Of a stretch of DNA of 37,223 nucleotides, positions 1 through 37,223 are shown one piece after another. The stretch covers positions 20,694,870 to 20,732,092 of the forward strand of contig NC_057719.1 of the NCBI RefSeq assembly GCF_004010195.1. The letters are read 5' to 3'. The DNA is from Chiloscyllium plagiosum (lineage: Eukaryota). The notes below the pieces were generated by a model that was given only the letters and a program-made list of their open reading frames with translations, was not told where the DNA came from and did no database searches. The stretch's first letter is position 1; every line of letters starts with the position of its first letter. The translations under genes and the position numbers were made by a program.

Positions 1-600
1 AAGGCGGAAGATGAGGCATTCTTCCACCAGGCTTCGGGTGGTAAAGGTTTAGCGGTGGTGGAGACCCAGGAAGTGCATGTCCTTGTTGGATTCGGAGGGG
101 GAGTTAAAGTGTTTGGCCACGGGGCAGTGGGATTGTTTCGTGTGTGTGCCCTGGAGATGTTCTCTGAAACTTTCTGTAAGTAGGCGTCCTGTCTCCCCAA
201 TGTAGAGGAGACCACATCGGGAGCAACGGATACAGTAGATGATGTGTGAAAGTACAGGTAAACCTCTGATGGATGTGGAAGGCTCCTTTGGGGCCTTGGA
301 TGGTGGTAAGGGAGGAGGTGTGGGCACAGGTTTTGCCATTCTTGCGGTGGCAGGGGAAGGTGACAGAAGGGGAGGGTGGGTTGGTGGTAAGGGGGGAGGG
401 AGGGGGGTATGGACCTAACAAGGGAGTCGTGGAGGGAATAGTCTTTATGGAATGCAGGTAGGGGTTGGGAGGGAAATATATCCCTGGTGGTGGGGTCTGT
501 TTGTAGGTGGCAGAAATGGCGGAGGGTAATGCGATATATCCAGAGATTGGTGGGTTGGAACTTGAGGACCATGGGGGTTCTGTCCTTGTTGCGGTTGGAG
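1..600 (-). mobile_element. Penelope-like retroelement (family A), frameshifted GIY-YIG endonuclease region; continues beyond the window start
   Basis: ORFs 49..339 and 104..610 give TFPC..K.CAH and HIIYCIRCSRCGLLYIGETGRLL..FREH..PVAKHFN, the PLE GIY-YIG signature; closely similar to 17600-18172. Confidence 0.9.
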
Positions 601-2020: not shown

Positions 2021-2169
2021 ATATATTAAAAAATGAGACTTTAAGACCTCTAGCACTACTTATATACATATCCTCTTTCTCTATTACGTTTGACATTTCC
2101 TTTCATTATACCCATCCCAGACCCCACCACTTTCCCTACCTCATTTAAATTTATTTTATCTCTAACATT

Positions 2170-2273
2170 TTCTCTGATTTACAAGAGCTCATTGACCCGA
2201 AACGTTTACTCTGCTCTCTCCTCCACAGATGATTCCTGACTGACTGAGTATTTCCAGCATTTTCTGTTTTTAT
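2170..2273 (+). mobile_element. Old PLE pseudo-LTR fragment (family C) with decayed hammerhead motif
   Basis: ...GACCCGAAACGTT..CTCTGCTCTCTCCTCCACAGATG..CCTGAC..CTGAGTATTTCCAGCATTTTCTGTTTTTAT; related to the reverse complement of 27875-28005. Confidence 0.6.
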
Positions 2274-3459: not shown

Positions 3460-3960
3460 AAGTACCCCCGTGCTGCAAATATTACATGGATTGACTGTCG
3501 TTTATGCATTTTTGAGCAAAATAGAAGGATCTGCAAATATAATTCTGCAGATACAAATTCATCTCATAAACTTATATGTGCGCATGTAAGAGAGACGGAG
3601 TGATTGTGCGCATGTGGGTGTGAATGTATGTGAGAGAGTGTGTGTTTGCATGTGTGTAAGCTTGGTAAACTGTGCGTGTGAGTGTGATGGGTATAGGCCT
3701 GTGAGAGGAGTGCATGCATGGGTGTGAGGGTGGGAGTGTATGTATGTGTGTATGAGAAAGAGCTTGTGTTTGAGAGAGTGTCTGCATGTGTGTGTGTGTG
3801 TGTGGAGTATACAGCACAATGGGGTCACCTGTAGTGTGACATGAACCCAAGATCCCAGTTGAGGCCATCCCCATGGGTACTGAACTTGGCTATCAGCCTC
3901 TGCTCGGCCACTTTGTATTCCTAGAGTCCCCCTTAGAGGACGGTTACCCAAAGGTCTGAG
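3460..3960 (-). mobile_element. PLE family B 3' end: end of GIY-YIG ORF plus CA-rich 3' region
   Basis: Minus strand encodes DLWVTVL*GGL..KVAEQRLIAKFSTHGDGLNWDLGFMSHYR*, followed by degenerate (CA)n at 3590-3805; same family as 20224-20784. Confidence 0.8.
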
Positions 3961-3962
3961 GC

Positions 3963-4085
3963 CTGTTGTGCGGTCCAGGCAGGGGTATTCCCTCCCAGTT
4001 GGAGAACACTTCAGCGGTCTGGGACGTTTGACGTCGGACCTTCAGGTGACCATCCTCCAAGGCGGACTTTGTGACAGGCAGCATC
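3963..4085 (+). mobile_element. PLE family B GIY-YIG fragment, inverted relative to 3460-3960
   Basis: Translates SRQGYSLPVGEHFSGLGRLTSDLQVTILQGGLCDRQH. Confidence 0.7.
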
Positions 4086-4127
4086 TGAGGAGCAGGAAAA
4101 TCAATGTTTCTTGATGAAGGGCTTTTA

Positions 4128-4375
4128 AGGTGAAAGGCAGGAGGTTTGGAGGAATTTGTTTTTCACCCAGATAGTGATGGGTTCTGGAATGCACTGGCTG
4201 GGAGAATAATTGTGAGAGTAACCTCAAAATCTTAAAAAGTACATGGATGATCACTGAAGTGTCAAAACATTAATGGTTATGTTTATTACAGGAAAGTGGG
4301 ATTGGTGTCAATTTAGAGTATTTTTGGTGGTACAGACTCAATGGGCCTTTTCTGTACTGTATGATTCTATGATTA
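4128..4375 (+). mobile_element. CR1-type LINE 3' end
   Basis: TTTTTCACCCAGA..GTG..GGTTCTGGAATGCACTG (FFTQRVV..WNAL-like) and ATGATTCTATGATT tail. Confidence 0.7.
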
Positions 4376-6560: not shown

Positions 6561-7279
6561 ATGGATGGCTTTGACAAAAGCCATACGTCTACGGAAATTA
6601 GATCTGACTTTAAAGATCCCTAGATTTGACACAAATCTACTTTATAAAAAATTGCTACAAGAAACTGTTATTCAACAGCAGCATATGTTCTGGATTACTG
6701 CAGGCAATGCCATAGAAGATCTGCTGTTAATAAACAAAACTGTTTTGTTTCTTTTTCAGGGGGAAATCTCATTGGACAGCATCGGATAGCTGAAAGGTAT
6801 TTCACAATGTGAAATTAATTATAACTTGGAGGCTTTGTGTCCACTCTTTTCTCCAATTTGTTTTTATTCCTTATCTTTTTGACATGAACAACAGTCTGCT
6901 TCCAGATTTGTATCAGTGTTACTCTGCTGAAAGAGCCTTATGAGGTAAACAACCTTCCTTGACTTTCCCTGTTTTTCACGGATAAAAAGAAGCGTAGCAG
7001 TTGGTATAGCTCAGGGAGATTTAGCTAGCATTGGGAACACAGGAGTACAGAAGATGCTAACGGGTGAATGGTGTCACATTATTCCATGGCCACCAGATGT
7101 TGCTCCTCTTAGAGTATCTCATCTCTAATAAAAATATAAAGAAACTTTAATTCTAGCAATATGTTTTTGCAAATTTATTGCATTTGGCCTATATTTACAT
7201 GTCTACCTTAACTTCATTCTATGCAGTAGGATCTTACTGAGACTTAATTTCTCTGGTCTTGTGTGGGACAATAAGCAGC

Positions 7280-7412
7280 AAGGAGAACGTGAGGACAGCA
7301 GATGCTGGAGATCAGAGTCGAAAGCTGTGGTGCTGGAAACGCACAGTAGGTCAGGCAGCATCCGAGGAGCAGGAGAATCAATGTTTTGGGCATAAGCCCT
7401 TCAGCAGGAATG
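7280..7412 (-). mobile_element. Solo PLE family A pseudo-LTR with mutated hammerhead core
   Basis: Matches the 10054-10170 arm; core reads CTGCTGA...AAAACATT; possible TSD AGCA(G/A)CAAG. Confidence 0.8.
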
Positions 7413-7569
7413 AGCAACAAGATTATGCCACGAATCCTAAACAATCACAATCTCTTCCCTCCATCCCTCTCCTTGGTAGGTCCTCATTAAATGTATTCTG
7501 CCAGGTCTCATTGGCCGGCCTTGGCTTGTTTTCTCACCTGGTAGTATCCATTCAACTGCTACTCTAGCA

Positions 7570-8789: not shown

Positions 8790-9120
8790 CTTCTGATTGG
8801 GTGTTAATCTGACTCCATTCCCCGCCTCCTCGCATTCCTAGATGTCCGACCCCACGTGACCTTCTTTTGCCCGCGAAATGGAGCATCACGTGACCTCCTC
8901 GACCCACTTCCGAGGCGCGAAACGGGACATCACGTGATCGCCCGCCCTCTTCTGAGTGCGAGACGGGGACGCCACGTGACCGCTCCGCGCTCTTCCGGGT
9001 GTGAGACGGGGACATCACGTGACCGCCCCGCACTCTTCCGGGTGTGAGACGGGGACGCCACGTGACCGCCCCGCACTCTTCCGGGTGTGAGACGGGGACG
9101 TCACGTGACCACCCCCCCTG
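8790..9120. promoter_or_regulatory. CpG-rich candidate promoter, possibly bidirectional
   Basis: Only CpG-dense non-transposon stretch in the window; 7 CACGTG, several CCGCCC and CTTCCG motifs, CCAAT box (CTGATTGG) at ~8793; splice donors facing outward at 8515-8520 (-) and 9196 (+). Confidence 0.65.
8845..9115. repeat. ~43-bp minisatellite, about 6 units, consensus CACGTGACCGCCCCGCACTCTTCCGGGTGTGAGACGGGGACRY
   Basis: CACGTG at 8853, 8887, 8931, 8973, 9016, 9059, 9102; the last units are nearly identical. Confidence 0.95.
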
Positions 9121-9565: not shown

Positions 9566-10053
9566 GCCATTAATATTTGTGACAAATTTCAATATTCTTT
9601 TGATACCTTGTCAATCTTAGTTGCCTTGTCATTCTTCAGGGTCTTGGTGAGCAGTTTTGGGCTCCATATCTAAAGGAGGATGTGTTGGCATTGGAAGGAA
9701 CTCAGATGACATTAACAAGAATGATCCCAGGTACAAAGGGCTTACAGTATGAGAAGAGGTTGAGGACTCTGGGTTTGTACTCGATAGTTTTCAGAAGAAT
9801 GAGGAGGGATCTGATTGAAACTTACAGAATACTGAGACACCTGGAGAGAGTGGATGTTGCAAAGATACTAAGAGAGGCCAGGACACAAGGGCATGATCTC
9901 AGAGTGAACGGACAACCCTTTAGAACTGAGATAAGGAGGAATTTCTTCAGCCAGTGAGTGGTGAATCTGTGGAATCATTGCCATTGAAGGCTGTGAAGGC
10001 CAAATCATTGAGTATATTTAAGATTGAGATAGATTGGTTCTTGATGAGTAAGG

Positions 10054-10273
10054 AGAAAGTGAGGTCTGCAGATGCTGGAGATCAGAGCTGAAAATGTGTT
10101 GCTGGTAAAGCACGCAGCATCCAAGGAACAGGAGAATCGACGTTTCGGGCATAAGCCCTTCATCAGGAATAAGCCCTTAATTCCTGATGAAGGGCTTATG
10201 CCCAAAACGTCGATTCTCCTGTTCCTTGGATGCTGCCTGACCTGCTGTGCTTTACCAGCAACACATTTTCAGC
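10054..10273. mobile_element. Palindromic (head-to-head) PLE family A pseudo-LTR insertion
   Basis: Inverted arms meet at ~10175; perfect 15-bp TSD TCTTGATGAGTAAGG at 10039-10053 and 10274-10288. Confidence 0.92.
10134..10170 (-). ncRNA. Minimal type I hammerhead ribozyme motif, core intact
   Basis: Minus strand AUUC-CUGAUGA-A-GGGC-UUAU-GCCC-GAAA-CG-UC-GAUUC. Confidence 0.75.
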
Positions 10274-10584: not shown

Positions 10585-10743
10585 TCAAGATTAGAGTGGT
10601 GCTGGAAAAGCACGGCAGGTCAGGCAGCATCCAGGGAGCAGGATTTTCCTGCTCCTCGGCTGCTGCCTGACCTGCTGTGCTTTTCCAACACCACGCTAAT
10701 CTTGACTCTGATCTCCAGTATCTGCAGTCCTCACTTTCGCCTC
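10585..10743. mobile_element. Short palindromic PLE family A insertion lacking the hammerhead core
   Basis: Inverted arms meet at ~10643; TSD GT(C/T)AAGAGTT at 10575-10584 and 10744-10753. Confidence 0.85.
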
Positions 10744-11246: not shown

Positions 11247-12017
11247 TTATTTTATGCTACAAATATATAATAATCCAAACCAGAGCACAATACATTACTG
11301 AAAGTGATCATAAATTAATTAGAATGTTTGAAATTATAATATTCAAATGACAGTTCAATGAGGGTTTTATTCTAATTAATTGATTACAGGCTTTACAGTT
11401 GTAAATTAAATTTACACACATTTTACCCATGCATTATAACCCTGTTCTTGTAATATTTAATTTTGTAAGCTGAAACTCTTTGATGGATTACTGCAATTGG
11501 GAAAACTTTTGAAACCTCAATGGATTTAGCCTTGACTTCTTGACAAGGTTTACTGCTTTCAAAACACTTGTCTGCAGTACTTCCAAGTACATTACAGAGA
11601 TGAGCACTGCTGGTTGGGTTGTAGAGCAATATAGAGGAGCTTGTACCTAATGCACAGGAGCAGATGCAGATTTTATAGTCTAGGAGATAGATCAGTAGAG
11701 AATAAAGTCCTTTCAATGTCTCTGCTGCTCTCATACCTGCAGATATTAGAAATGGTGCCCATGTTGTTCCATTGCCATAGCTAGAAGCTGCCGGCTTATT
11801 ATTTTATGCTACAAATATATAATAATCCAAACCAGAGCACAATACATTACTGAAAGTGATCATAAATTAATTAGAATGCTTGAAATTATAATATTCAAAT
11901 GACAGTTCAATGAGGGTTTTATTCTAATTAATTGATTACACGCTTTACAGTTGTAAATTAAATTTACACACATTTTACCCATGCATTATAACCCTGTTCT
12001 TGTAATATTCTAATTTT
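11247..12017. repeat. ~218-bp direct duplication (11247-11464 and 11799-12017)
   Basis: Copies differ at only about three positions by eye. Confidence 0.95.
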
Positions 12018-12113
12018 AGATTAGATTAGATTACAGTGTGGAAACAGGCCCTTCGGCCCAACAAGTCCACACCGACCCGCCGAAGCGAAACCCACCCATA
12101 CCCCTACATTTAC
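12018..12113 (-). mobile_element. HE1-type SINE 3' end, cut by the assembly gap
   Basis: Exact reverse complement of ~12326-12421 apart from the base next to the gap; (TAATC)n tail. Confidence 0.9.
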
Positions 12114-12197
12114 NNNNNNNNNNNNNNNNNNNNNNNNNNNNNNNNNNNNNNNNNNNNNNNNNNNNNNNNNNNNNNNNNNNNNNNNNNNNNNNNNNNN
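12114..12197. other. Assembly gap (84 N)
   Basis: N run. Confidence 1.
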
Positions 12198-12424
12198 TGG
12201 AGTTTGCACGTTCTCCCCGTGTCTGCGTGGGTTTCCTCCGGGTGCTCCGGTTTCCTCCCACAGTCCAAAGATGTGCAGGTTAGGTGAATTGGCCATACTA
12301 AATTGCCCGTAGTGTTAGGTAAGGGGTAAATGTAGGGGTATGGGTGGGTTTCGCTTCGGCGGGTCGGTGTGGACTTGTTGGGCCGAAGGGCCTGTTTCCA
12401 CACTGTAATCTAATCTAATCTAAA
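12198..12424 (+). mobile_element. HE1-type SINE, 5' end lost in the gap
   Basis: TGGAGTTTGCACGTTCTCCCCGTGTCTGCGTGGGTTT core (V-SINE domain) and CR1-like tail. Confidence 0.92.
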
Positions 12425-13127
12425 ATTAGTGTCATAGGGCATGATATCAGCACTCATCAGTGTATGAGGACACCTTCAAGGCTGAAGTTTGAGTTTGTGT
12501 TTGCATGCTTTGAAGCATTGCTGGGAATTTAAATGGCTACCACACATATTCTGAAATGGAATCTCTCCCTCTGACTTGAAAAGGATGCCTGCTTAGATAA
12601 GATCTGTGGAGTAAGTGATTCAGTGCTTTAAAATGTGTCATTTACCTTCTGCTGTCTGCTATGATACCCTAGACTTCTGGCAGCAGGACAAAATGTCTGG
12701 CACATGATGTGCTCTCTGAGGAGGCTAGCACCCTTGCTCCCTGATGTGTTACCATCTCAGCTGATGTCCAGAATGCTGTCAGAAAGCCAGCTGAGAGAGA
12801 CTGCCTTAACAGCCCTTTGCATCCGAACCAACTCACACCGGAGTCACACCTGTTGATTGTCCGAATGTCTCAGCACAGCTTCATCCACCTTCTATTGAAT
12901 CACCGCACATGAGGAATAAAAATTGGACATTTTATGTTCGGAAGAAAATTACAGTTTGAACACTGTATATCAATTTTAAAGAAAAGTTATTCAGCATTTA
13001 CAAATCTGGTATCTGGTGGCTAATTTGCATTCTCAGAATGTCGGCTGAATGATTGACTGTTCTATTATGCAAACTGAAGAGATTTGTGAAGACATTGTTA
13101 ATGCAAATAATTCTTATAATTTTTCAG

Positions 13128-13329: not shown

Positions 13330-13468
13330 GCTCTCTGCCTCCATTCCTGATGAAGGGCTTTTGCCTGAAACGTCAATTTTCCTGCTCCTTGGATGTTGTC
13401 TGACCTGCTGTGCTTTTCCAGCACCACTCTAATCTAAACTCCAGCATCTGCAGTCCTCACTTTTGCCT
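13330..13468 (+). mobile_element. Solo PLE family A pseudo-LTR with near-intact hammerhead (13347-13374)
   Basis: CTGATGA-A-GGGC-TTTT-GCCT-GAAA-CGTC; TSD AATCACAG at 13322-13329 and 13469-13476. Confidence 0.85.
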
Positions 13469-14647: not shown

Positions 14648-16790
14648 TAGAGTCATAGGGTCATACAGCAAGGAAACTGACCTATCGGTTCAAACAATCC
14701 ATGCCAAACATAATCCCAAACTAAATTAGTCCTGCCTGCCTGATCCTGGCCCATATAATTCCAAACCTTTCCTATTCATGTACCAAAGTGTCTTTTACAA
14801 GTTGTAACTGTGCCCGAATCCACCATTTCCTCAGGATGTTCATTTCACACATGAACCACCCTCTGTGTAAAACTTTTGCCCCTCATGTCTTTTTTACATC
14901 TTTCTCCTCTCACCCTAAAAAAACCTAAAAAAAAAATTTTCTTAGATTACAAAGAGATCCTTATCAAATAGATCAGTGGGTTGAAAATGACAGGTATTAC
15001 AAGATATTGCATTTTGCTACAAAAAACAAGGGCAACCTAGGGAAAAGACACCTACCATTAACTCTCGCTATTCCCCTCATGATTTCATAATTCTCTATAA
15101 GGTCATCTCTCAACCTCCCACACTCCAGAGAAAAGAGTCCCAGCCTATCCAGCCTTTCTTTATAATTCAAACCTTCCATACCCAGCAACACCCTGGTAAA
15201 TCTCTTCTGAACCCTCTCTAGCTTAGTAATATCCTTCCTAAAACTGGGTGACCCGAACTGGACACAATATTTCAGAGCTGGCCTCAACAATGTCCTGTAC
15301 AATCTCAACATGACGTCCCAACTCCTATACTCTAAGGACTGAGCAATGAAGGAATCATGCTAAATTAACCAAACTGTCAGTATATGATGCAAACTTCAAA
15401 TAATTATGTACCTGAACCCTTAGGTCCCTCTGTTCAACAATACTACTCAAGGCACTGCCATTAATTGTACCAAAATGCAATAACTTGCATTTATCCAAAT
15501 TGAACTTCATCTGGCATTTTTCAGCCCATTGACTCATTTGATCAGAATTCCTTTATAGTCTTAGCAAACTTTCTTTACTGTCTACTATGCCACCAGTTTT
15601 GATGTCATCTACAAACCTACTTGCCATGCCTTCCAAATCCAAATCATTTACATAAATGACAAACAAAAGTGGACCCAGAACCAATCCCTGTGGAACCTTC
15701 TTTCACCACTCCGTCTCCTGCCGTTAAGCCAATTTTGTATCCAATTAGCAAGTTCACCCTAAATCTTATGTGACCTAACACTACTAATTAGTCTGCCATG
15801 TGGAACCTTGTCAAAGGCTTTACTAAAGTCCAAGTAAACAATGTCTACCGCTCTGCCCTCTTCAATCTTTTTAGTAACTTCCTCAAAAAACTCAATCAAA
15901 TTTGTGAGATATGAGTTTCTTCAGACAAAGCCATGCTGACTGTCCCTAATCAATTTTTGCCTCTTTAAAGGTTTATGAATCCTATCTTTTAGAATCATCC
16001 CCAACAACTTGGAGAAAGTGTTTGGAATGCTTTTCTTTATTGGACTAAGCACTGAGTGTAGGAGTTGTGAGGTCATGTTACAGGTATACAGGACATTGGT
16101 TAGACCACTTTTGGCATATTGTGTGCAATTCTGATCTCCCTCTTATCGGAAGGATGTTGTGAAACTTGAAAGGGTTCAGAAAAGATTTACAAGTATGTTG
16201 CCAGGGTTGGAGGATTTAACTGCAGGAATAGGCTGGGGCTGTTTTCCCTGAAGCATCAGAGGTTGAGGGGTAACCTTTTGGAGGTTTATAAAATCATGAA
16301 GGGCATGTATAGGGTGAATAGATATGGTTTTTTTCCCTGTGGTGGGGGAGTCCAGAACTAGAGGGTATAGAGGGGGAAAAATTTAAAAGAGACCTAAAGG
16401 GGCAACTTTTTCATACAAAGGGTAGTGCATGCATGGAATGAGCTGCCAGAGGAAGTGGTGGAGACCGGTACAATTACAACATTTAAAAGGCATCTGGATG
16501 GCTATATGAATAGGAAGCATTTTGATGGATATGGACCAAGTCTTGGCAAATGGGACTAGATTAATTTGGGATATCTGGTCGGCATGGATGAGCTGGACCA
16601 AAAGGTCTGTTTCTGTGCAGCACATCTCAATGACTCTATGATCCTAATTTACCCACAACTGAAGTCAGACTCACCAATTTATAGTTCTCCAGCTTCTCAG
16701 TCAAACCCCTCCGAAACAAAGTCACAACATTAGCCATCCTCCAGTTATTAAGGAAACTTCACCCTTAGTTATAGATGATGCAAATATTTC
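14648..16790 (-). mobile_element. CR1/HER1-type LINE (RT to 3' tail), fragmented, with nested insertions
   Basis: ORFs 14997..15311 (LYRTLLRPALKYCVQF..LERVQKRFTR) and 15355..15537 (WAEKCQMKFNLDKCKLLHFG); YLDFSKAFDKVPHG at ~15836-15797. Confidence 0.92.
16011..16642 (+). mobile_element. CR1/HER1-type LINE 3' end nested in the opposite-strand CR1
   Basis: YRTLVRPLLAYCVQF*SPSYRKDVVKLERVQKRFTSMLPGLED; ATGACTCTATGA tail; the host resumes at ~16648. Confidence 0.92.
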
Positions 16791-17342
16791 TGCACAATAA
16801 ATCATGTTCCCTCCACAGTGCCATTTAATTTACTTTACTACTCATTCTTCCTACCAAAACCTGTCACTTCACCCTCTTCGACACAGAATTTCACCTATTT
16901 GTCGATCCATTTCAGCACTTTCTAAGTGTCCTCCTGAAATATATCACTGTCCTCCTCATTGTTTGCTGCATTTCTGAATCAAATCTGCAAATATACCATG
17001 TATACAATCCAGGTTATTGATTTTTTTTTTCAAAAAAGCAGTGATGTTAATACTGCTACTTAATGAAATAAAAGGATATTATTTTTATAGTTGCCAACAC
17101 CCTATATAAGCCACCACAATGTGTGCTGAAGGCCAATTTTCCTATTTACCCTGGGACACTGATCCGGATCAATCACCCACAATATGGGGTGCTGAAGGCT
17201 AGTTTTCCTGTTTCCCGTGGTTCACTGATTATTCCGGAGCAATTACCCACAATGTGGGTGCTGAAGGCTGGTTTTCCTGTTTACCTAAATCACTCCGAAT
17301 CAATCACCCACAATGTGTGGTGCTGAAAGCCAGTTTTCCTGT

Positions 17343-18172
17343 GTAGAGCTGAAAATGTGTTGCTGGAAAAGCGCAGCAGGTCAGGCAGCATCCAGGGAAC
17401 AGGAGAATCGACGTTTCGGGCATAAGCCCTTCTTCAGGAATGAGGAAAGTTTGTCCAGCAGGCTAAGATAAAAGGTAGGGAGGAGGGACTTGGGGGAGGG
17501 GCGTCGGAAATGTGATAGGTGGAAAGAGGTCAAGGTGAGGGTGATAGGTCAGACTGGGGTGGGGGCTGAGAGGTCGGGAAGAAGATTGCAGGTTAGGAAG
17601 GCGGTGTTGAATTTGATGGATTTGACTGAGACAGGCTGGGGGGAGGGGAAATGAGGGAACTGGTGAAATCCGAGTTCATCCCTTGTGGTTGGAGGGTTCC
17701 CAGGTGGAAGATGAGGCGCTCTTCCTCCAACTGCTGTGTTGTTGTGGTCTGGTGATGGAGGAGTCCAAAGACCTGCATATCCTTGGTGGAGTGGGAGGGG
17801 GAGTTGAAGTGTTGGGCCACAGGGTGGTTGGGTTGGTTGGTCCTGGTGTCCCAGAGGTGTTCTCTGAAACGCTCTGCAAGTAGGCGGCCTGTCTCCCCAA
17901 TATAGAGGGGGCCACATCGGGTGCAGAGGGTGCAATAGATGATGTGTGTGGAGGTGCAGGTGAATCTGTGGCGGGTATGGAAGTTTCCTTTGGGGCCTTG
18001 GAGGGAGGTGAGGGGGGAGGTGTGGGCGCAAGTCTTGCACCTCCTGCGGTTGCAGGGGAAGGTGCCGGGAGTGGAGGTTGGGTTGGTGGGGGGTGTGGAT
18101 CTGACGAGGGAGTCACGGAGGGAGTGGTCTTTACGGAATGCTGATAGGGGAGGGGAGGGAAATATATCCTTG
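17343..18172 (-). mobile_element. 5'-truncated PLE family A: open GIY-YIG C-terminal ORF plus 3' pseudo-LTR
   Basis: ORF 17593..18213 TFPCNRRRCKTC..HIIYCTLCTRCGPLYIGETGRLLAERFREH..HFN..EERLIFHLGTLQPQGMN; TSD GTTTTCCTGT at 17333-17342 and 18173-18182. Confidence 0.95.
17405..17441 (-). ncRNA. Minimal type I hammerhead ribozyme motif, core intact
   Basis: Minus strand AUUC-CUGAAGA-A-GGGC-UUAU-GCCC-GAAA-CG-UC-GAUUC, ~150 nt downstream of the GIY-YIG stop codon. Confidence 0.78.
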
Positions 18173-18311
18173 GTTTTCCTGTTTACCCTGGGATACTGAT
18201 CACTCCGGATCAATCACCCACAATGTGGAGTGCTGAAGGCCTGTCTTCCTGAGTACACTGGTACACTGATCCTCCAGATCAATCACCCAAAACGTGGTGC
18301 TGAAGGCCAGA

Positions 18312-18665
18312 CGTTTTCTTCACCACCCTGTGTACTTGCGATGCCACTTTCAAGGAACTATGGACCTGCACCCTGAGGTCCCTCTGTTCAACAACACTCT
18401 CTAGGGTCCTACCATTAATTGTGCAAGTCCTGCTGTGATCTGCCTTACCAAAATGTGGCACCTCATGTTTATTTAAGTTAAACTCTATCTGTTAATCCTT
18501 GGCCTTTCATTAGCAGGGGGATTGAATTTAAGAGCTGCAAGGTTATGCTGCAGCTCTCTACAGCCCTGATTAGACCACACTTGGAATATTGTGTTCAGTT
18601 CTGGTTGCCTTATTACAGGAAGGGTGTGGAAGCTTTAGCAAGGGTGGGCCATTGGCCTATCTGTT
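18312..18665. mobile_element. CR1 fragment (minus) containing an inverted plus-strand CR1 segment at ~18503-18646
   Basis: Minus HFGKA..INGRTLESVVEQRDLRVQVHSSLKVASQVHRVVKK; plus FISRGIEFKS..RPHLEYCVQFWLPYYRKGVEAL. Confidence 0.85.
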
Positions 18666-19998
18666 AAAGCTTGACTAAGTTGAAATCCTGTACAGTAAAA
18701 AATAACATTGAGGTCATCATTTCTGTTAGGTATCCTTCAGATCACAGTGATTGTATATTCCATATGTTTTAATCATGGAGTTAAAATAGCGATTGGCAGG
18801 TTCCAGGCTGTTATTGGGTGATAAGTTGATGTTATGTTTTAAGCAGTTCACCCACCCCAGTATACTGGCAGATAAAGTTAATATTTGATGCAGTTGCTAG
18901 AAGTCTAACATTGAAGACAAAAGGTTAAGGAATCATACTGCATTCTGACACAAATGATTTAGATTTAAATTTTGTGTAAGTCTTAAGTATCTCTGTATGT
19001 TCAGTAATACATTTCTTTAGAGATGTTAAATGAACTTTCTTGCCTATTTATTGATGAAAATAATCTCATGGAATCTCTTATAGAAGATCAAGGATTTCTA
19101 TTACTTCATGCACATGAGTAGATTTGCTTTAATTGCATTTAATGGTATGGGGAGGGAAGGAGAATGGGGAGTGTCATATCTTATAGAAATTGATTGCTGT
19201 ATTTATCTGCATAACATTATTAAATGTAACTTCACAGCAGTTCATTGCCTTACTTTTGAATTCCTGCTCGTGTTAAAGTGATTGACAAATACATACCAGA
19301 TGCAGAATTCACACAGTTATATTTTATATGAATTTGTCATAAAACTGTTAGGCAGTTTGTCATGGAAATAAAAGATATGAAACCTAGACTTATGTAGCAT
19401 TAGCATCAATGATATTTTACAATGTTAATGCAAATTGCAATTAACATTCAGTGTAGTGAGACTGCAGGATCCTCAAAACTCATTTTTTTTCGCAATAAAC
19501 TATCTATTAATTCTTTGTTAATCAAAAGATTGAAATTTGCCAAGTCTATATTAGCAAACTGTTTCATGCGAAATATTGAGCTGTTTTTGTCTCATAGTAA
19601 AAACTGGTTTAACCTCAGTGCTTGCAAAATCTTATTTTTAACTGACTATAGCATTCTAATCCTGACAAATATAGATGTGTTTTAATCAGCCAGTTAATTA
19701 ATCTAAAGCAATGAGAAAGATGGTTGTAATTTTTCACACCAAATACTTCTTTTAAATGCTGCGATGCTTCAACACTATTAAATCTATCTTTGTTCATGGA
19801 CCAGCATTCAAATTGAAACACTGCATTGAGCAAATGCCTTCAACTCAAAAGGCAGGCCAGTACATGAGGGGAAAGAAAGACAGAAAATGACTCCCTTCTG
19901 AATGATCACTGAGAAAAACCTAACAGTGACTACTCTCCATAATGCAGCATGAAATTATGTCTCTTGCAAGTTTCTGTTTGTTTTTATTTGCATTTCAG

Positions 19999-20128
19999 GG
20001 AACATGAAGAATAAATACATTCACAGGAGCCAATGGTAGTATTGCATTCCAGGAGAATTGCAAGATTGCCCCATGGTTTCTACTATTCCTACCCGCAATC
20101 CCCTCAGCGACCGAAGATCCAGACTTAA
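19999..20128 (+). other. Candidate exon, non-coding or containing a start codon
   Basis: Strong TTTCTGTTTGTTTTTATTTGCATTTCAG acceptor; possible AA|GTAATA donor; all frames closed at the 5' side; no recognised protein. Confidence 0.3.
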
Positions 20129-20223
20129 GTAATATTAATTAACTTTTTTTTGTTCCTTAATGGAATACAGGTGAGGCTGGTAACAGCAAGCATTTATTGC
20201 TCAACCCTAACTGACCTTGAGAA

Positions 20224-20784
20224 TGATTCGGAGATGCCGGTGTTGGACCTTGGGTTCATGTCACATTACAGGTGATCACCATTGCACTACACACACACAC
20301 ACAGATATTCCTACACAGACACTCTCACATACACACGGACACAGATACACACAGACGCGCACACAGACACCCACACACACTCTTATAGACACACAGACTC
20401 CCACACATGCACCCCCTCATAGACTTAAGACACTCTGCACTCACTACACACACACACACAAACACACACACTTTCTCACACTCACAACCCCCACNNNNNN
20501 NNNNNNNNNNNNNNNNNNNNNNNNNNNNNNNAAAGAAAGGGTTTTGTGATTTACACATGAAAGAAGTGAAACTATCACTAAATTCTAACAGATGAAAGGC
20601 TTAACAGACAATCAATTCTTCAATGTATAATTTCAGTTACATCACACTGCAAATTTTTGCTATAAATTCTGTGTTACGATCGAGCCCTCCACAATCACCT
20701 GATGAAGGAGCGTCGCTCCGAAAGCTAGTGTGCTTCCAATTAAACCTGTTGGACTATAACCTGGTGTTGTGTGATTTTTAACTT
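20224..20784 (+). mobile_element. PLE family B 3' end with CA-rich tract, assembly gap (20495-20531) and pseudo-LTR
   Basis: DLGFMSHYR* ORF end at ~20247-20276; 12-bp TSD TGACCTTGAGAA at 20212-20223 and 20785-20796. Confidence 0.88.
20696..20730 (+). ncRNA. Minimal type I hammerhead ribozyme motif, best-preserved copy
   Basis: CAC-CUGAUGA-A-GGAGC-GUC-GCUCC-GAAA-GC-UA-GUG: stem I CAC/GUG, 5-bp stem II, palindromic AGCU in place of helix III. Confidence 0.82.
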
Positions 20785-21523
20785 TGACCTTGAGAAAGTT
20801 GTGCAAATTACCTCGAACTGTTGCAGTCCATATGATGAATAATGCTATTGGGTAGAGAGTTCCAGAATTTTGGCCCAGTGACAACTTTACATTTCTGAGT
20901 CCAAATGATATGCCACTTGGAAGGGAACTTGTAGGTGTCAATGTTTCCATGGTTGAAACATTGAAGATGTTGAATTTCTAAATGGGAAAGATTTGAATAT
21001 GGATTTTAGAGACTTTGTGAAGAGGATTTGGTGAATTTTAATAGTACATTCTTTAGATTGCACACACTGTGGTCATGTTATGTCCATGAGACAATTTCAA
21101 ACTGAATGAAGTTTGGAGATTCTCCTGAAATCGTATCTTCTGCAACTGAAAGATGCTGGGATAGAATATTTGTAGTCCAACTTATTGATCTGAAGCAACA
21201 GCAATTTCTAGAATTAAGTTTTAATGATTTGAATAAAGAAAAATCCAGATCAGAAGAGCTCTGTACCCAGTTTTTGTGTTGTAAATTTTATGCAAGAAAG
21301 AAAGGCTACACATTGTTTCAGATGGCAGTTGACTTAAAAGACATTCACCACAAAAAAAATGAGTAGGGGACAATTTTAAAGGAATTCAGATAATCATTTT
21401 TCTTACATAGAACTTACGGAAGCGAGACAGATCATTCATTGTTGCAGATCTATGTCTACTCAAGGACAAATAAGATGCTACAATACAAACTGGTCTAGCC
21501 AGTAATACTTGCATTCCATGAAT

Positions 21524-24546: not shown

Positions 24547-24765
24547 GAGAAAGTGAGGACTGCAAATGCTGGAGACCAGAGTTGAAAAATGTGGTGCTGG
24601 AAAAGTGCAGCAGACCAGGCAGCATCCGAGGAGCAGAAGAATTGACATTTCGGGCATAAGCCCTTCTTCAGGGATGAGCTCATTCCTGAAGAAGGGCTTC
24701 TGCCTGAAACGCGATTCTCCTACTCCTCGGATGCTGCCTGGCCTGCTGCACTTTTCCAGCACCAC
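24547..24765. mobile_element. Palindromic PLE family A pseudo-LTR insertion with hammerhead motifs on both strands
   Basis: Arms meet at TGAGCTCA (24675-24682); 15-bp TSD ACTATTA(T/C)ATTATAG at 24532-24546 and 24766-24780. Confidence 0.92.
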
Positions 24766-27874: not shown

Positions 27875-28005
27875 AAAATAAAAGAACTGCGGATGCTGGA
27901 AATCAGAAACAAAATCAGAAATTGCTGATAACCTCAGCAAGTCTGGCAGCAACTGTTGGGAGAAAGCAAAGTTAACTTTCTGGTCCAGTGACCATTCTTC
28001 AGAAC
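27875..28005 (-). mobile_element. PLE family C pseudo-LTR with hammerhead-like motif at 27971-28005
   Basis: Minus strand GUU-CUGAAGA-A-UGGUC-ACUG-GACCA-GAAA-G-UU-AAC; possible TSD CAATAAT; related fragment at ~27715-27780. Confidence 0.7.
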
Positions 28006-28247
28006 AATAATCAATGTGGGACTAAGAATGGTTGCTCCTCCAAAGAGGCAGCACTACTTGACCTCTTTCCGTGTTTTAAATTTCAATGATTCAATGAACT
28101 GTGACATTAAATGTTTGAAGGGAATTAATTGACAAGTGAAAGAACAGGGGAGTGAGATTTATTGAATATCTCTCCAAAAGAGCTGACACTCGTACAATGT
28201 TCCTAAGCCCCTATTCTGTGCTTATCTTTTTCATTCCTGTGAAGTGA

Positions 28248-28625
28248 TCTTCACTGACTAGGCTAGCTTCACTGGGTAGCCAGCTTCACTGACTAGGCCA
28301 ACTTCACTGGGTAGGCAGGCTTCACTGACTAGACCAACTTCACTGACTAGATCAGCTTCACTGACGAGGCCAGCTTCGCTAGGTAGGCCAGCTTCACTGA
28401 TTAGACCAACTTCACTGACTAGACCAGCTTCACTGACTAGACAGCTTCACTGATGAGGCCAGCTTCACTAGGTAGGCCAGCTTCACTGACTAGACCAACT
28501 TCACTGACTAGACCAGCTTCACTGACTAGGCCAGCTTCACTGATGAGGCCAGCTTCACTAGGTAGGCCAGCTTCACTGACTAGACCAACTTCACTGACTA
28601 GACCAGCTTCACTGACTAGGCCAGC
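28248..28625. repeat. 18-bp minisatellite (CCAGCTTCACTGACTAGR, ~21 units) with a 90-bp higher-order repeat
   Basis: 28442-28531 is identical to 28532-28621; a diverged third copy lies at 28353-28441. Confidence 0.97.
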
Positions 28626-34597: not shown

Positions 34598-35173
34598 AGG
34601 AGAAAGTGAGGACTGCAGATGCTGGAGATCAGAGTCAAAGTGTGTGGTGCCAGAAAAGCACAGCAGGTCAGGCAGCATCTAAGGAGCAGGAGAGTTGATG
34701 TTTCGAGCATAAGACCTTCATCAGGAATGGGGGGGGAAAGGAGGTGTGGTGGGGTGCAAGGGGGCTGAGAGATAAATGAGAGGGGGGTGGGGCTGGTGTG
34801 AAAGTAGCTGGGAATGCGATAGGTAGATGGAGATGGGTGGAGTGGCTAGGTGGGGGGAGGAAGATAGACAGGTAGAACAATTCAAGAGGGCATCGTCCTC
34901 TTGAACAGGCCTACCTGTTCATCTTCCTTCCCATCTCTCCGCTCCACCCTCTGCTCCGATCTACCACCTATCACCATTACTCCCGCCTGCATCTAACTAT
35001 CACCTTCCCAGCTACCTTTTCCCCCAGCCCCAGCCCCCTCCTATTTATCTCTCAGCTCCCATGGCATCCCCCTTCCACATTCCTGATGAAGAGCCTATGC
35101 TTGAAACGTTGACTCTCCTGTTCCTTGGATGCTGCCTGACCTGCTGTGCTTTTCCAGTGCCACACTTGTTGAC
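34598..35173. mobile_element. Long palindromic PLE family A insertion (~290-bp arms) with decayed hammerhead motifs on both strands
   Basis: Centre TTCAAGAGGG-CATCG-TCCTCTTGAA at ~34881-34905; motifs at ~34697-34725 (-) and 35083-35110 (+); possible degenerate TSD C(C/T)TGGCACC(C/T)T. Confidence 0.88.
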
Positions 35174-36482
35174 ATGGAAACTTGGCACCTTACTCACCTG
35201 GTACCTTAACCTCCTGGCATCCTAATCTCACATTTGTGCACATATTATTTGACAGCAGCTGTCTAAATGTCTGTATAATACTGTGCCTTTCAATTTCAGA
35301 AAATGGCAGATGGTCGCTCTGCAGAGAGGCCATAGTTTTCCTGGCCTGACAGTTATGCACAACCAGAGAGCTCTCACCCCTTAATGTTGCTATGGCATCT
35401 CCTTCACCCCTTGAGGGGATGGAGCAGCTGGTTAGAGATCAAGCTTCTTCTGTCCCGTCTCGCCTAGCTGGTGAATTCATGGCTTGAGTTATGGAGTGAA
35501 GATCTCCAAACATAACTGGCAGGTACTGATTATTCTGTCTCACCATGGCAACTATCACCCATCCCATGAAGACAACTGTGCCCTTGCATGCTGGAGTCAC
35601 ATCAGAAAGGATGTGGGCAGACTTCCCTGCTCTCGGCTCCAGTCTGCTCATGATCTCTGGCACTTCTGATTAACATTTCCCTGCTTGCCGATGTAAATCC
35701 ATCTACTGATCGATGGCCCAAGTGCTAAAGTCCATCATCTGTCAGAGGCTTATTCTCCTGCAGTCACCTCATATCAAAAGTCTTGACCACTTCTTCTTCC
35801 TGTAGCTGTGGGACTTTGCCAGTGCCATGGTCACCATAATGTGACCCCAAGTTTATTTTAGAAAAAGTACACACCGAGGTGCTGGTGGTAGTGGGGATGG
35901 GGGTGGAGGTAGGGGGGCTGGCCTTGAAGGTGCATCCTCTGAAGTTCATGAATTTCCTCCTCAGAGGTGCACTGTGAGATGCTGATAGAGATGGGCAGGG
36001 TTCTTCTCTATTTGGTTCTGAGGTAGGGAATGGAAGCCATAGACTGCGTAGAGAAAAACATAAACATTTTCAGGTGTTGCAGTTCGCCCTCCTCACTCAT
36101 GGCTTTATGAAGATGTTTGTGTTTGATATGTAGCTGTGAGCCTTTTACATGAGTATGGATTTGCTTTCCGCCCTTCAGCACAGACACATTCCCCTTGCTC
36201 TCCCACCAGTTGGGTGACCTGTTCCTGAGAGTGGGCAAGCAGTCTCATACCAGCCCACCACACTCACCACCCCTCCCCACTGTCGCGATACATTCTCTCT
36301 TGCAGAAGGAGAAAAGTATTGAAAGGCATTTGCTTGATTACTTTAACACTATGTCAATCTTGACAGATAAAGGTCAAGATGTCAGTCTGTGACCGCCTGT
36401 GAGATATGGGGCAATTTAGAAGGTGATATGGTCAAACAGCCTATGCATATTGATAAATTGTGAACTATATTTTGTATCCTCG

Positions 36483-36835
36483 TATATCCTCGTAAATCTC
36501 TCTTGAACCCTTTCCAAAGCTTCCACATCCTTCCTGTAATGCGGTGACCAGAACTGTACGCAATGCTCCAAATGTGGCTGCACCAGAGTTTTATCCAGCT
36601 GCAGCATGATCTCATGGTTCCAAAACTCAATCCCTCTACCAATCAAAGCTAACACACCATATGCCTTCTTAACAGCCCTATCAAACTGGTTGGCAACTTT
36701 CAAGGTTCTATGTACCTGGACACCAAGATCTCTCTGCTCATCTCCACTATCAAGAATCCTACCATTAACCCAATACTCTGCATTCCTGTTACTCCTTCCA
36801 AAGTGAATCACTTTACATTTTTCCACATTAAACTG
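36483..36835 (-). mobile_element. CR1/HER1-type LINE RT C-terminal fragment
   Basis: ORF 36416..36937 QFNVEKCKVIHFGRSN..QRDLGVQVH..LVQPHLEHCVQFWSPHYRKDVEALERVQERFTR. Confidence 0.93.
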
Positions 36836-37223
36836 ACATTGATTGGGAAAGCTATAGCTCAAGTTCATTAGATGGGTCAGTGTTTGTCCAATGTGTGCAG
36901 GAGGGTTTCCTGACACAATATGTAGATAGGTCAACAAGAGGTGAGGCCATACTGGATTTGGTTCTGGGTAATGAACCAGGCCAGGTGTTAGAATTAGAGG
37001 TAGGTGAGCACTTTGGGGACAGTGACCACAATTCGGTGACTTTTACTCTAGTGATGGAGAGGGATAAGTGTGCACTACAGGGCAAGAGTTATAGATGGGG
37101 GCAGGGAAATTATGATGCTGTGAGGCATGACTTAGGATGTGTGGCCTGGAAAAGTAAGCTTCAAGGCAAGGGCATAATTGATATGTGGAGCTTGTTCAAG
37201 AAGCAACTATTGAGTGTCCTTGA
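36836..37223 (+). mobile_element. CR1-type LINE ORF2, end of AP endonuclease and linker; frame open to the window edge
   Basis: From 36841: DWESY..GFLTQYVDRSTRGEAILDLVLGNEPGQV..VGEHFGDSDHNSVTF..NYDAVR..MWSLFK with no stop; absent from the ORF track. Confidence 0.92.

Follow-up and report, generated by a model that had tools for sequence, protein, structure and literature searches.

How does a stretch of only 37,223 nucleotides (nt) of the Chiloscyllium plagiosum genome (contig NC_057719.1, positions 20,694,870 to 20,732,092; hereafter the window) come to hold 12 hammerhead ribozyme sites, and are these sites at work? A first-pass annotation, made from the sequence alone, had named them minimal hammerheads, and our analysis confirmed both their presence and their name; they are almost certainly hammerheads of Penelope-like elements (PLEs). 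In our reading, to which we give a probability of about 0.8, they are minimal type I hammerheads of the pseudo-long terminal repeats (pLTRs) of endonuclease-bearing PLEs of two lineages, and their density comes from 5'-truncated retrotransposition and not from selection on each copy. The class itself was already known, as the annotation had stated, since minimal type I hammerheads of PLE pLTRs have been published (PMC4209133). As a catalogue entry, therefore, hammerheads of a known kind in a shark-like genome matter little. What is new concerns one family, termed here family B. Its used poly(A) site follows the predicted cut by ~30 nt but precedes the 3' end of the element, and a candidate TATA box stands 30 nt ahead of a hot spot of junctions, a layout like that of an LTR. 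The pattern of ends in such a copy-rich genome records where cDNAs start and stop and bears on what PLE hammerheads do.

Hammerhead motifs in the window and their state

The motif at 20696-20730(+) reads CAC CUGAUGA A GGAGC GUC GCUCC GAA AGCU A/GUG, exactly as annotated, with the cut predicted after A20727 (slash). It consists of a 3-bp stem I, CUGAUGA, an extra A, a 5-bp stem II with a 3-nt loop, GAA, the palindrome AGCU and A17. In its monomer fold, stem II had pair probabilities of 0.93-0.99 (0.93-1.0 for stem II overall) and stem I of 0-0.16. All 12 annotated sites were recovered, their numbering being off by a few bases, and a further partial motif of family A had been missed at ~4075-4130; the labels A, B and C for families are our own.

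We scanned both strands with regular expressions and compared the counts with those in 300 dinucleotide shuffles made in 1-kb blocks. The bare core CUGANGA..GAAA was found 11 times in the window, and the shuffled windows averaged 2.9 and reached 8, so the bare core alone is weak evidence; two of the 11, at 613(+) and 29505(+), lack stem II and are probably chance matches. The combination of core, stem II and NUH was present seven times (shuffle mean 0.07, maximum 1). The strict minimal type I descriptor, a search that the first-pass annotation had proposed and that adds the 4-nt palindrome and a 2-bp stem I, recovered four motifs in the window and none in each of the 300 shuffles. Copies of a single repeat do not count as independent evidence; what carries weight is that two unrelated lineages both pass. 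The non-independence, the 2.9 bare cores per shuffled window and the Rfam result (none of 21 matches to E 5 was a hammerhead family, only hairpin look-alikes of the inverted pairs) could all speak for a common repeat that resembles the core by chance, although the Rfam miss would be unsurprising for a motif without helix III. We consider such a coincidence scarcely credible: two lineages that share no other DNA similarity keep the core, A9a, G10.1-C11.1, the palindrome and NUH with different pairs, and the motifs match the published consensus at the published place (PMC4209133).

The copies differ in how much they retain. Eleven sites were tabulated feature by feature, with positions given as those of residue C3, and the twelfth, 2174(+), was inspected by eye. 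The complete core with its NUH (C3 U4 G5 A6 N7 G8 A9, G12 A13 A14, A15.1, U16.1 and H17) was present at eight of the 12 sites including 20699(+), core and palindrome together at five, and these plus stem I at four, namely 20699(+), 17437(-), 10166(-) and 35083(+). Among the 11 tabulated sites, the unpaired extra A after A9 was found in all, the pair 10.1-11.1 was G-C in seven, G.U in three and U-A in one, and an open helix I of 2-3 bp, weak in folds, in eight. The palindrome ACGU or AGCU, annotated as the general form of helix III, was seen at six of the 11 (five of them with an intact core), but 27971(-) has only AGU, one base short and not palindromic; this same copy is the sole source of the UGGUC/GACCA and GUU/AAC stems. 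The copy at 35083(+) had been classed as decayed and in fact passes the strict descriptor, with G.U and A-U pairs in stem II and U17. Elsewhere, the pair 1.1-2.1 is lost at 13347(+), 24641(-) and 34697(-), the last of which also has a UxC mismatch in stem II, G12 is lost at 10180(+) and 7375(-), and the CUGANGA half is gone at 2174(+).

Carriers, lineages and insertion architecture

The carrier is seen best in family A. The intact hammerhead at 17437(-) lies ~155 nt downstream of an open reading frame (ORF) on the same strand, listed as 17593-18213(-), of which the element part reaches 18172. This ORF contains a Cx4CxxC linker (CNRRRCKTC), a CCHH-type motif (CTLCTRC..H..H) and a GIY-YIG-type core; its Pfam GIY-YIG match was below the cut-off (E 0.016), and the fragment at 1-488(-) matched at E 6e-4. 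The best of 17 longer homologues were proteins of Chiloscyllium, Rhincodon and Stegostoma (75, 63 and 58% identity, respectively), followed by proteins that combine a reverse transcriptase (RT) with GIY-YIG (39-50% identity). In the homologues P0004 and P0008 a telomerase-like RT lies N-terminal to the endonuclease, a part absent from the truncated copies of the window. The intact hammerhead behind a same-strand GIY-YIG ORF with shark protein matches bears out the annotated placing of these motifs in PLE pLTRs. The zebra shark (Stegostoma) protein P0003 continues past the PLE stop into pLTR sequence; its end is LMKGLRPKR, which we read as the translation of an A-type hammerhead, so that the link of ORF and hammerhead would recur in a second shark; gene models like P0003 are probably mis-annotated PLE copies. 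Judged by its motifs, the element most likely belongs to the Neptune clade. The longest family A insertion splits a 66-69-bp tandem array (17123-17342 and 18176-18308) and is flanked by a 10-bp duplication (17333/18173).

Family B can be called a PLE by architecture more than by protein, because its endonuclease matches are weak and its linkage crosses an assembly gap. The fragments 3828-3920(-) and 3884-4111(+) match consecutive parts of a local PLE endonuclease profile (E 0.058 and 0.018, respectively), and 3828-3920(-) and its neighbour rank next after the family A pieces in that search. A tblastn search with the endonuclease-like fragment gave a local E of 8e-4; there was no homologue among 48 database candidates, and no BLASTP alignment was obtained. 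Linkage across the 37-base gap (20495-20531) rests on the target site duplication around the insertion. At 3480-4135, fragments of family B are joined directly to a pLTR fragment of family A, either by nested insertion or by template switching between lineages.

Nine of the sites belong to family A and two to family C. Families A and C align over the whole end module of ~120 bases (local score 68) and hence form one lineage, whereas A and B share 11 core bases only; the three different families of the annotation are thus two lineages (A with its sister C; B) with three subfamilies. The stem I pairs are C-G and U-A in A, C-G, A-U and C-G in B, and U-A, U-A and G-C in C, and helix III differs between families as well (ACGU vs AGCU). 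The stems had been described as covarying: between A, B and C the pair types do change and stay paired, in a comparison by hand of three sequences, one from a damaged copy, but within A a two-sided change was seen in only one of nine arms.

In the family A copies, CpG cells had changed in 23 of 108 cases and other cells in 34 of 592 (p 1.5e-6), and this decay strikes G12, the pair 1.1-2.1 and the palindrome. Among non-CpG cells, 1 of 89 had changed in the core and 22 of 359 downstream (p 0.06; singletons only, p 0.48). In family B, positions with a 5% variant in DNA run X1 numbered 1 of 11 in the core and 2 of 56 downstream. Decay within a family is thus mainly at CpG, and the core shows no significantly better conservation than the flank, a comparison that the first-pass annotation had named as a test of its own reading.

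Each insertion comprises one or two cDNA arms, head to head, inside a target site duplication of 8-15 bp, and in each pair one arm only carries a tail (Table 1). In the pair 10054-10273 the minus arm is intact and tailed and the plus arm has G12>A and no tail; in the pair 24547-24765 the hammerheads of both arms are damaged. No clear target duplication was found around the pair 34598-35166. In the core-less pair 10588-10743 the arm with the tail has its first base directly behind the predicted cut (+1 to +3, given a 2-nt microhomology), and another fragment starts 5-7 nt before the cut. Three of the nine family A arms extend far upstream; five of the six short arms start 4-7 nt before C3 and the sixth 9-17 nt before it. 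Since these short arms include the whole hammerhead, their templates were uncut RNA. The spacer at 10170-10180, between the arms of the first pair, is an 8-base copy of the hammerhead stem II region, that is, a templated junction.

As RNA, the pair 10054-10273 folds into one hairpin (-164 kcal/mol, z -23) with the entire motif paired, so that close pairs block the dimer and do not enable it. The annotation had described the genome as densely seeded with potentially self-cleaving motifs. The density is indeed high, and PLE-derived pieces make up ~11% of the window with boundaries as we drew them, but self-cleavage was overstated: eight of the 12 copies are damaged, the pairs are hairpinned and no read ends at the cut. 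It is unlikely that most copies are able to cut.

We propose that massive 5'-truncated retrotransposition of the pLTR end would produce this density. In Anolis, the PLE protein nicks each of the two strands and extends it, initiating reverse transcription at two internal sites on either side of the tail, and cleavage there is assisted by protein and dispensable for insertion in vitro (PMC11167929). These two start sites would account for the tail on one arm only that is also described for other PLEs (PMC8557442). By the same literature, uncut RNA would be the template and the hammerhead would cut only as a dimer or with protein help. The stop of cDNA just upstream of the hammerhead would then mark where an RNA that starts in the pLTR has its 5' end, the ribozyme would be selected only in active master elements, where copies of the same family may pair through the 4-nt palindrome, and most dispersed copies would be inert by-products that decay at CpG. 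That the dispersed copies are inert passengers, and that the RNA 5' end explains the upstream stops, seems to us reasonably probable.

Transcripts and junctions of family B

To follow family B beyond the window, reads were aligned to a query of 20540-20900 at 80% likeness in four of 24 runs (DNA runs X1 and X9, the latter from a second organism, and RNA runs X21 and X22, chosen by species label). For 16700-20200 the index gave no RNA run. These reads and contigs represent the whole family and not the locus at 20696, and their depth is not a copy number. In X1, 62,529 contigs aligned, and in X9 62,691, so family B is very abundant. We counted 24 changes above 5% in the aligned region in X1 (some differences may be uncounted); those inside the motif fall in loop II and at CpG sites and include C11.1>U (10%) and G12>A (9%), the latter at ~9% of depth in both DNA runs. 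A deletion of 2 nt at 20728 occurs commonly, without loss of GUG. Loose ends peak behind 20782-20786 in both DNA runs, and the reverse complement of 20224-20248 is the sequence that continues past 20786 in 1766 contigs of X1, 1824 contigs of X9 and 292 RNA reads.

In the single-cell poly(A) run X21, 3755 reads aligned from ~2% of the run, and ~85% of their depth is sense to the ribozyme. Runs of A follow position 20756 in 457 reads and position 20759 in 558 reads, at a distance of 12-15 nt from ATTAAA/AATAAA; the depth drops there from 1497 to 468, and the downstream DNA is not A-rich. Family B RNA is therefore polyadenylated 29-32 nt after the predicted cut, upstream of both genomic 3' ends (20786 and the tail end), and is abundant in uncut form. 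The 292 reads that continue into the tail establish that read-through RNA exists. In families A and C, no canonical poly(A) hexamer was found within 112 nt after the cut in any of 10 arms, so this layout holds for B only and is not general. A GU/U-rich stretch, of a kind with a known role at poly(A) sites, follows the addition sites at 20762-20779, and TATAAAT at 20661 may function as a TATA box. Tens of thousands of working poly(A) signals of this kind could end host transcripts early.

The transcripts bear directly on whether dispersed copies might act as ribozymes in vivo, cleaving RNAs of the host and of the element either in trans or helped by a chaperone. The family B cut, 12 nt before the poly(A) signal, would then remove the poly(A) tail and so lead to loss of the RNA, which has been described for Clec2 hammerheads. 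In favour of this, every feature is retained in four of the 12 copies, G12 is retained in ~90% of family B depth while all other core bases (and those of stem I) stay below 5% variation in X1, family B is transcribed in the sense direction with a used poly(A) site right behind the cut, and some joints and one arm start lie at the cut site. However, 56 downstream bases are equally quiet (2 positions), and RNA depth before, across and after the cut was 1649, 1600 and 1722, with no pile-up of molecule starts or ends at the cut site in the X21 poly(A) reads. Moreover, the helix III duplex is worth only -3.1 (ACGU) to -4.5 kcal/mol (AGCU), stem I is unformed in monomer folds, and the nearest intact copies of the same family and strand in the window are 7.3 kb apart. 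In published assays monomers were inactive and dimers slow (PMC4209133), and one of nine Xenopus dimers cut. We regard widespread cutting by these copies as unlikely.

The junctions between family B arms give the second line of evidence on where cDNAs end. Among 15 of 89 joints listed, all seven opposite-strand joints have one side at 20688-20698, and the joint at 20691 was present in 9+3 contigs of X1 and 6+1 of X9. Such clustering could instead reflect a stall of reverse transcription, or a repair hot spot, at the hammerhead structure. Stem II is very stable, the junctions show microhomologies and a templated stem II copy, and in family A only weak TATA-like words occur, at -36 to -52. Against this, both of two unrelated lineages have their ends past the hairpin, 4-11 nt upstream of C3, a canonical TATAAA stands 30 nt before the best junction of family B, and the start site of D. 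virilis is also a short way upstream of its hammerhead. A stall or repair origin is thus possible but, in our judgement, a good deal less so than an RNA 5' end.

A tandem joint, 20782 to 20691, occurs in four X9 contigs and, together with the similar 5' starts of independent insertions and the derivation of animal retrozymes from pLTRs, could point to the 95-135-bp copies being an independent non-autonomous family, like a short interspersed element (SINE) or a retrozyme, with its own cycle through cleavage and circles. Animal non-LTR retrozymes (PMC7229834; bioRxiv 10.64898/2026.07.22.740005, which reports them in one chondrichthyan genome) do share type I hammerheads and a pLTR origin, but they are defined by tandem units and mostly canonical hammerheads, whereas the copies here are solo or head to head. 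We found no tandem arrays of the unit in the window, where none of nine tandem-repeat rows overlaps a hammerhead. In the order of their sequence the short copies correspond to the 3' end of copies with an ORF, and they have no upstream candidate promoter, and copies derived from circles would have no need to start just before the core. An independent family is highly improbable, and the short copies are better read as truncated PLEs.

Within the truncated-PLE reading, the order of features in family B invites a more specific proposal. In a retroviral LTR (U3-R-U5), a TATA box, a start site, a short redundant region, a poly(A) signal and a downstream priming point follow each other, and strong-stop DNA is made. 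The family B pLTR may work in a similar way with the ribozyme in its R region, in the order TATA at 20661, start at ~20691, hammerhead, poly(A) site at 20756-20759 and then priming points at 20786 and the tail end; we hold this tentatively and think it rather doubtful. Because the poly(A) site precedes both 3' ends, polyadenylated element RNA would have priming points only in its 5' pLTR, so that the first cDNA would run ~95-130 nt to the cap and be inserted as a strong-stop mini-element; a piece of ~95-130 nt is as long as the mini-copies are. To obtain a full-length copy, the element would have to jump through R, use read-through RNA or form a circle. For a circle, the two terminal hammerheads may pair through the family-specific palindrome (ACGU and AGCU do not pair with each other) and so remove cap and poly(A) together, and arms starting at the cut site would be fossils of this cut. 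If true, such a layout would explain the flood of solo hammerheads in animal genomes. The likeness is functional only: PLEs have no integrase, no primer tRNA site and no true LTRs, and priming takes place at nicked target DNA.

Several observations weigh against our reading as a whole. The RNA evidence comes from one sample, whose second run X22 gave 0 aligned reads. An oligo-dT library is blind to cut RNA, since it misses both the 3' piece of ~30 nt and the 5' piece without a tail, so that a fraction of the RNA may be cut. A depth step at 20683-20696 was considered as the start site and rejected, because first-mate read length gives the same step (a 150-nt first mate, of which 67-69 letters stay loose, extends only ~80 nt upstream from the poly(A) site); the RNA start is thus placed indirectly. 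In three of the seven listed opposite-strand joints the other side falls at 20730, which in the common form, shorter by 2 nt, directly follows the cut; these joints may reflect cut RNA, though they are a lead only because alignments also break at that indel; the arm start at +1 to +3 in the pair 10588-10743 may likewise stem from cut RNA. The trend in the family A core (1.1% vs 6.1%) leans to some constraint. Finally, the endonuclease link of family B is weak (local E 0.02-0.06) and crosses the gap, the Neptune assignment is by motif and not by tree, the window containing no RT, and for family C, which lacks an ORF here, PLE membership is drawn from homology to the A pLTR.

Comparison with known elements and other features of the window

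The motifs resemble most closely the minimal hammerheads (min-HHR) of Cervera and de la Pena 2014 (PMC4209133). They share the type I topology, CUGANGA with an extra base, G10.1-C11.1, GAAA, NUH, a palindromic 15.2-16.2 and a short stem I, and in both cases one genome holds several families, with most copies solo or in close pairs on opposite strands. A difference is the stem I of family A, which has only 2 bp, a mismatch and one more pair. In the supplement of that paper, a shrimp row has A17, as does the motif at 20696, and a turtle row (GAAA GCUU AUGC CCAAAUAAAUC) resembles family B; supplement file 2 holds no shark. By eye, AAUAAA or AUUAAA follows the cut in nine of 44 supplement rows inspected, which the authors note as 'AU-rich'. 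With family B the turtle motif has GAAAGCU and CCAAAUAAA in common, a hint of a lineage, either old or moved horizontally, that combines hammerhead and poly(A) signal. The same paper gives 4,000 motifs in coelacanth and 9,000 in Xenopus, counts that the density here (4 strict motifs per 37 kb) may far exceed if the window is typical. A search that covered open papers, with subscription papers, Repbase entries and some supplements outside it, gave no earlier description of PLE hammerheads followed by a poly(A) site.

With the Neptune clade (Craig et al. 2021, PMC8557442) the elements share a C-terminal GIY-YIG, a CX2-5CxxC linker, an internal cysteine pair, 5' truncation, an inverted 5' copy and a 30-40-bp tail on one end. 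They differ in having no RT in the window and clear target site duplications of 8-15 bp, and Nematis is an alternative in the absence of a tree. With the Anolis Poseidon element PAc (Frangieh et al. 2024, PMC11167929) they share a tail bracketed by two 3' ends, the use of both strands, an uncut RNA template and, within the data described there, no RNA-seq ends at the cut site; PAc belongs to another clade, its ORF starts inside the hammerhead, and the description consulted maps neither a poly(A) site nor a start site for it.

Table 1. Coordinates of PLE-derived features in the window (strand given as a full stop where both or neither apply).
Feature	Position	Strand	Remarks
Family B: target site duplication, left copy (12 bp)	20212-20223	+	Exact match to 20785-20796
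Family B: inverted PLE tail, a second, very short arm	20224-20248	-	Reverse complement matches family tail
Family B: last codons and stop of endonuclease-like ORF (LGFMSHYR, stop)	20249-20275	+	Same ending as 3828-3920(-)
Family B: 3' untranslated region (UTR)	20276-20660	+	CA-rich tract 20289-20471, N gap 20495-20531, AT-rich part
Family B: candidate TATA box TATAAAT	20661-20667	+	Sequence; 30 nt before junction hot spot 20691
Hot spot of arm 5' ends in other family B copies	20688-20698	+	Best 20691, 8 nt before C3
Family B: minimal type I hammerhead	20696-20730	+	Sequence, descriptor, fold
Family B: poly(A) signal ATTAAA	20739-20744	+	Sequence; AATAAA in ~35-40% of contig depth (T>A at 20740)
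Poly(A) addition sites used by family B	20756-20759	+	RNA read A-runs
GU/U-rich downstream element of poly(A) site	20762-20779	+	Sequence
Family B: target site duplication, right copy	20785-20796	+	Insertion stops at 20784-20786, where the family's 3' end without tail lies
Inverted family B endonuclease-like fragments	3480-4135	.	UTR, no hammerhead; abut family A fragment 4075-4130; boundaries approximate
Family A head-to-head pair	10054-10273	.	One 15-bp target site duplication (10039/10274); both arms start ~4 nt before C3
Family A head-to-head pair	24547-24765	.	15-bp duplication, 1 mismatch (24532/24766); arms start ~7 nt before C3
Family A head-to-head pair, long upstream arms	34598-35166	.	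35083(+) passes strict descriptor, 34724(-) fails
Core-less family A head-to-head pair	10588-10743	.	Boundaries approximate
Longest family A copy	17343-18172	-	GIY-YIG endonuclease half, pyrimidine-rich UTR, intact hammerhead 17408-17439
Second family A endonuclease fragment, frameshifted	1-488	-	Runs off window start; 76% DNA identity to 17702-18174
Solo family A copy	13330-13468	+	Hammerhead 13345-13376, pair 1.1-2.1 broken; 8-bp duplication
Solo family A copy	7277-7415	-	Arm start ~7 nt before C3; A6>C and G12>A leave the core dead
Family C copy, sister of A	27876-28010	-	Hammerhead 27971-28005, helix III one base short
Decayed family C copy	2150-2270	+	Core 5' half lost; boundaries approximate

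The pattern of families A and C matched 0 loci in metagenome and prokaryote genome contigs, and that of family B 0 loci in metagenome contigs. No tRNA genes were found in the window. Decayed C-terminal fragments at 9604-9957, 14997-15359 and 36416-37042, which had no Pfam match, are presumably tails of ORF2 of CR1/L2-type long interspersed elements. A GC-rich 43-bp tandem repeat at 8886-9115 (5.3 copies) contains TCACGTGAC in each unit, which we take to be an E-box or CLEAR-like word; its CpGs are well kept, unlike those in the rest of the window, so it is possibly a promoter or a young repeat. At 12010-12429 there is a head-to-head SINE-like pair with 104-bp arms that are 100% identical and an N gap inside, either a very young insertion or an assembly artefact, and beside it 11247-11464 and 11799-12017 form a direct repeat of 98.6% identity. 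Finally, an 18-bp minisatellite with 21 copies occupies 28249-28625.

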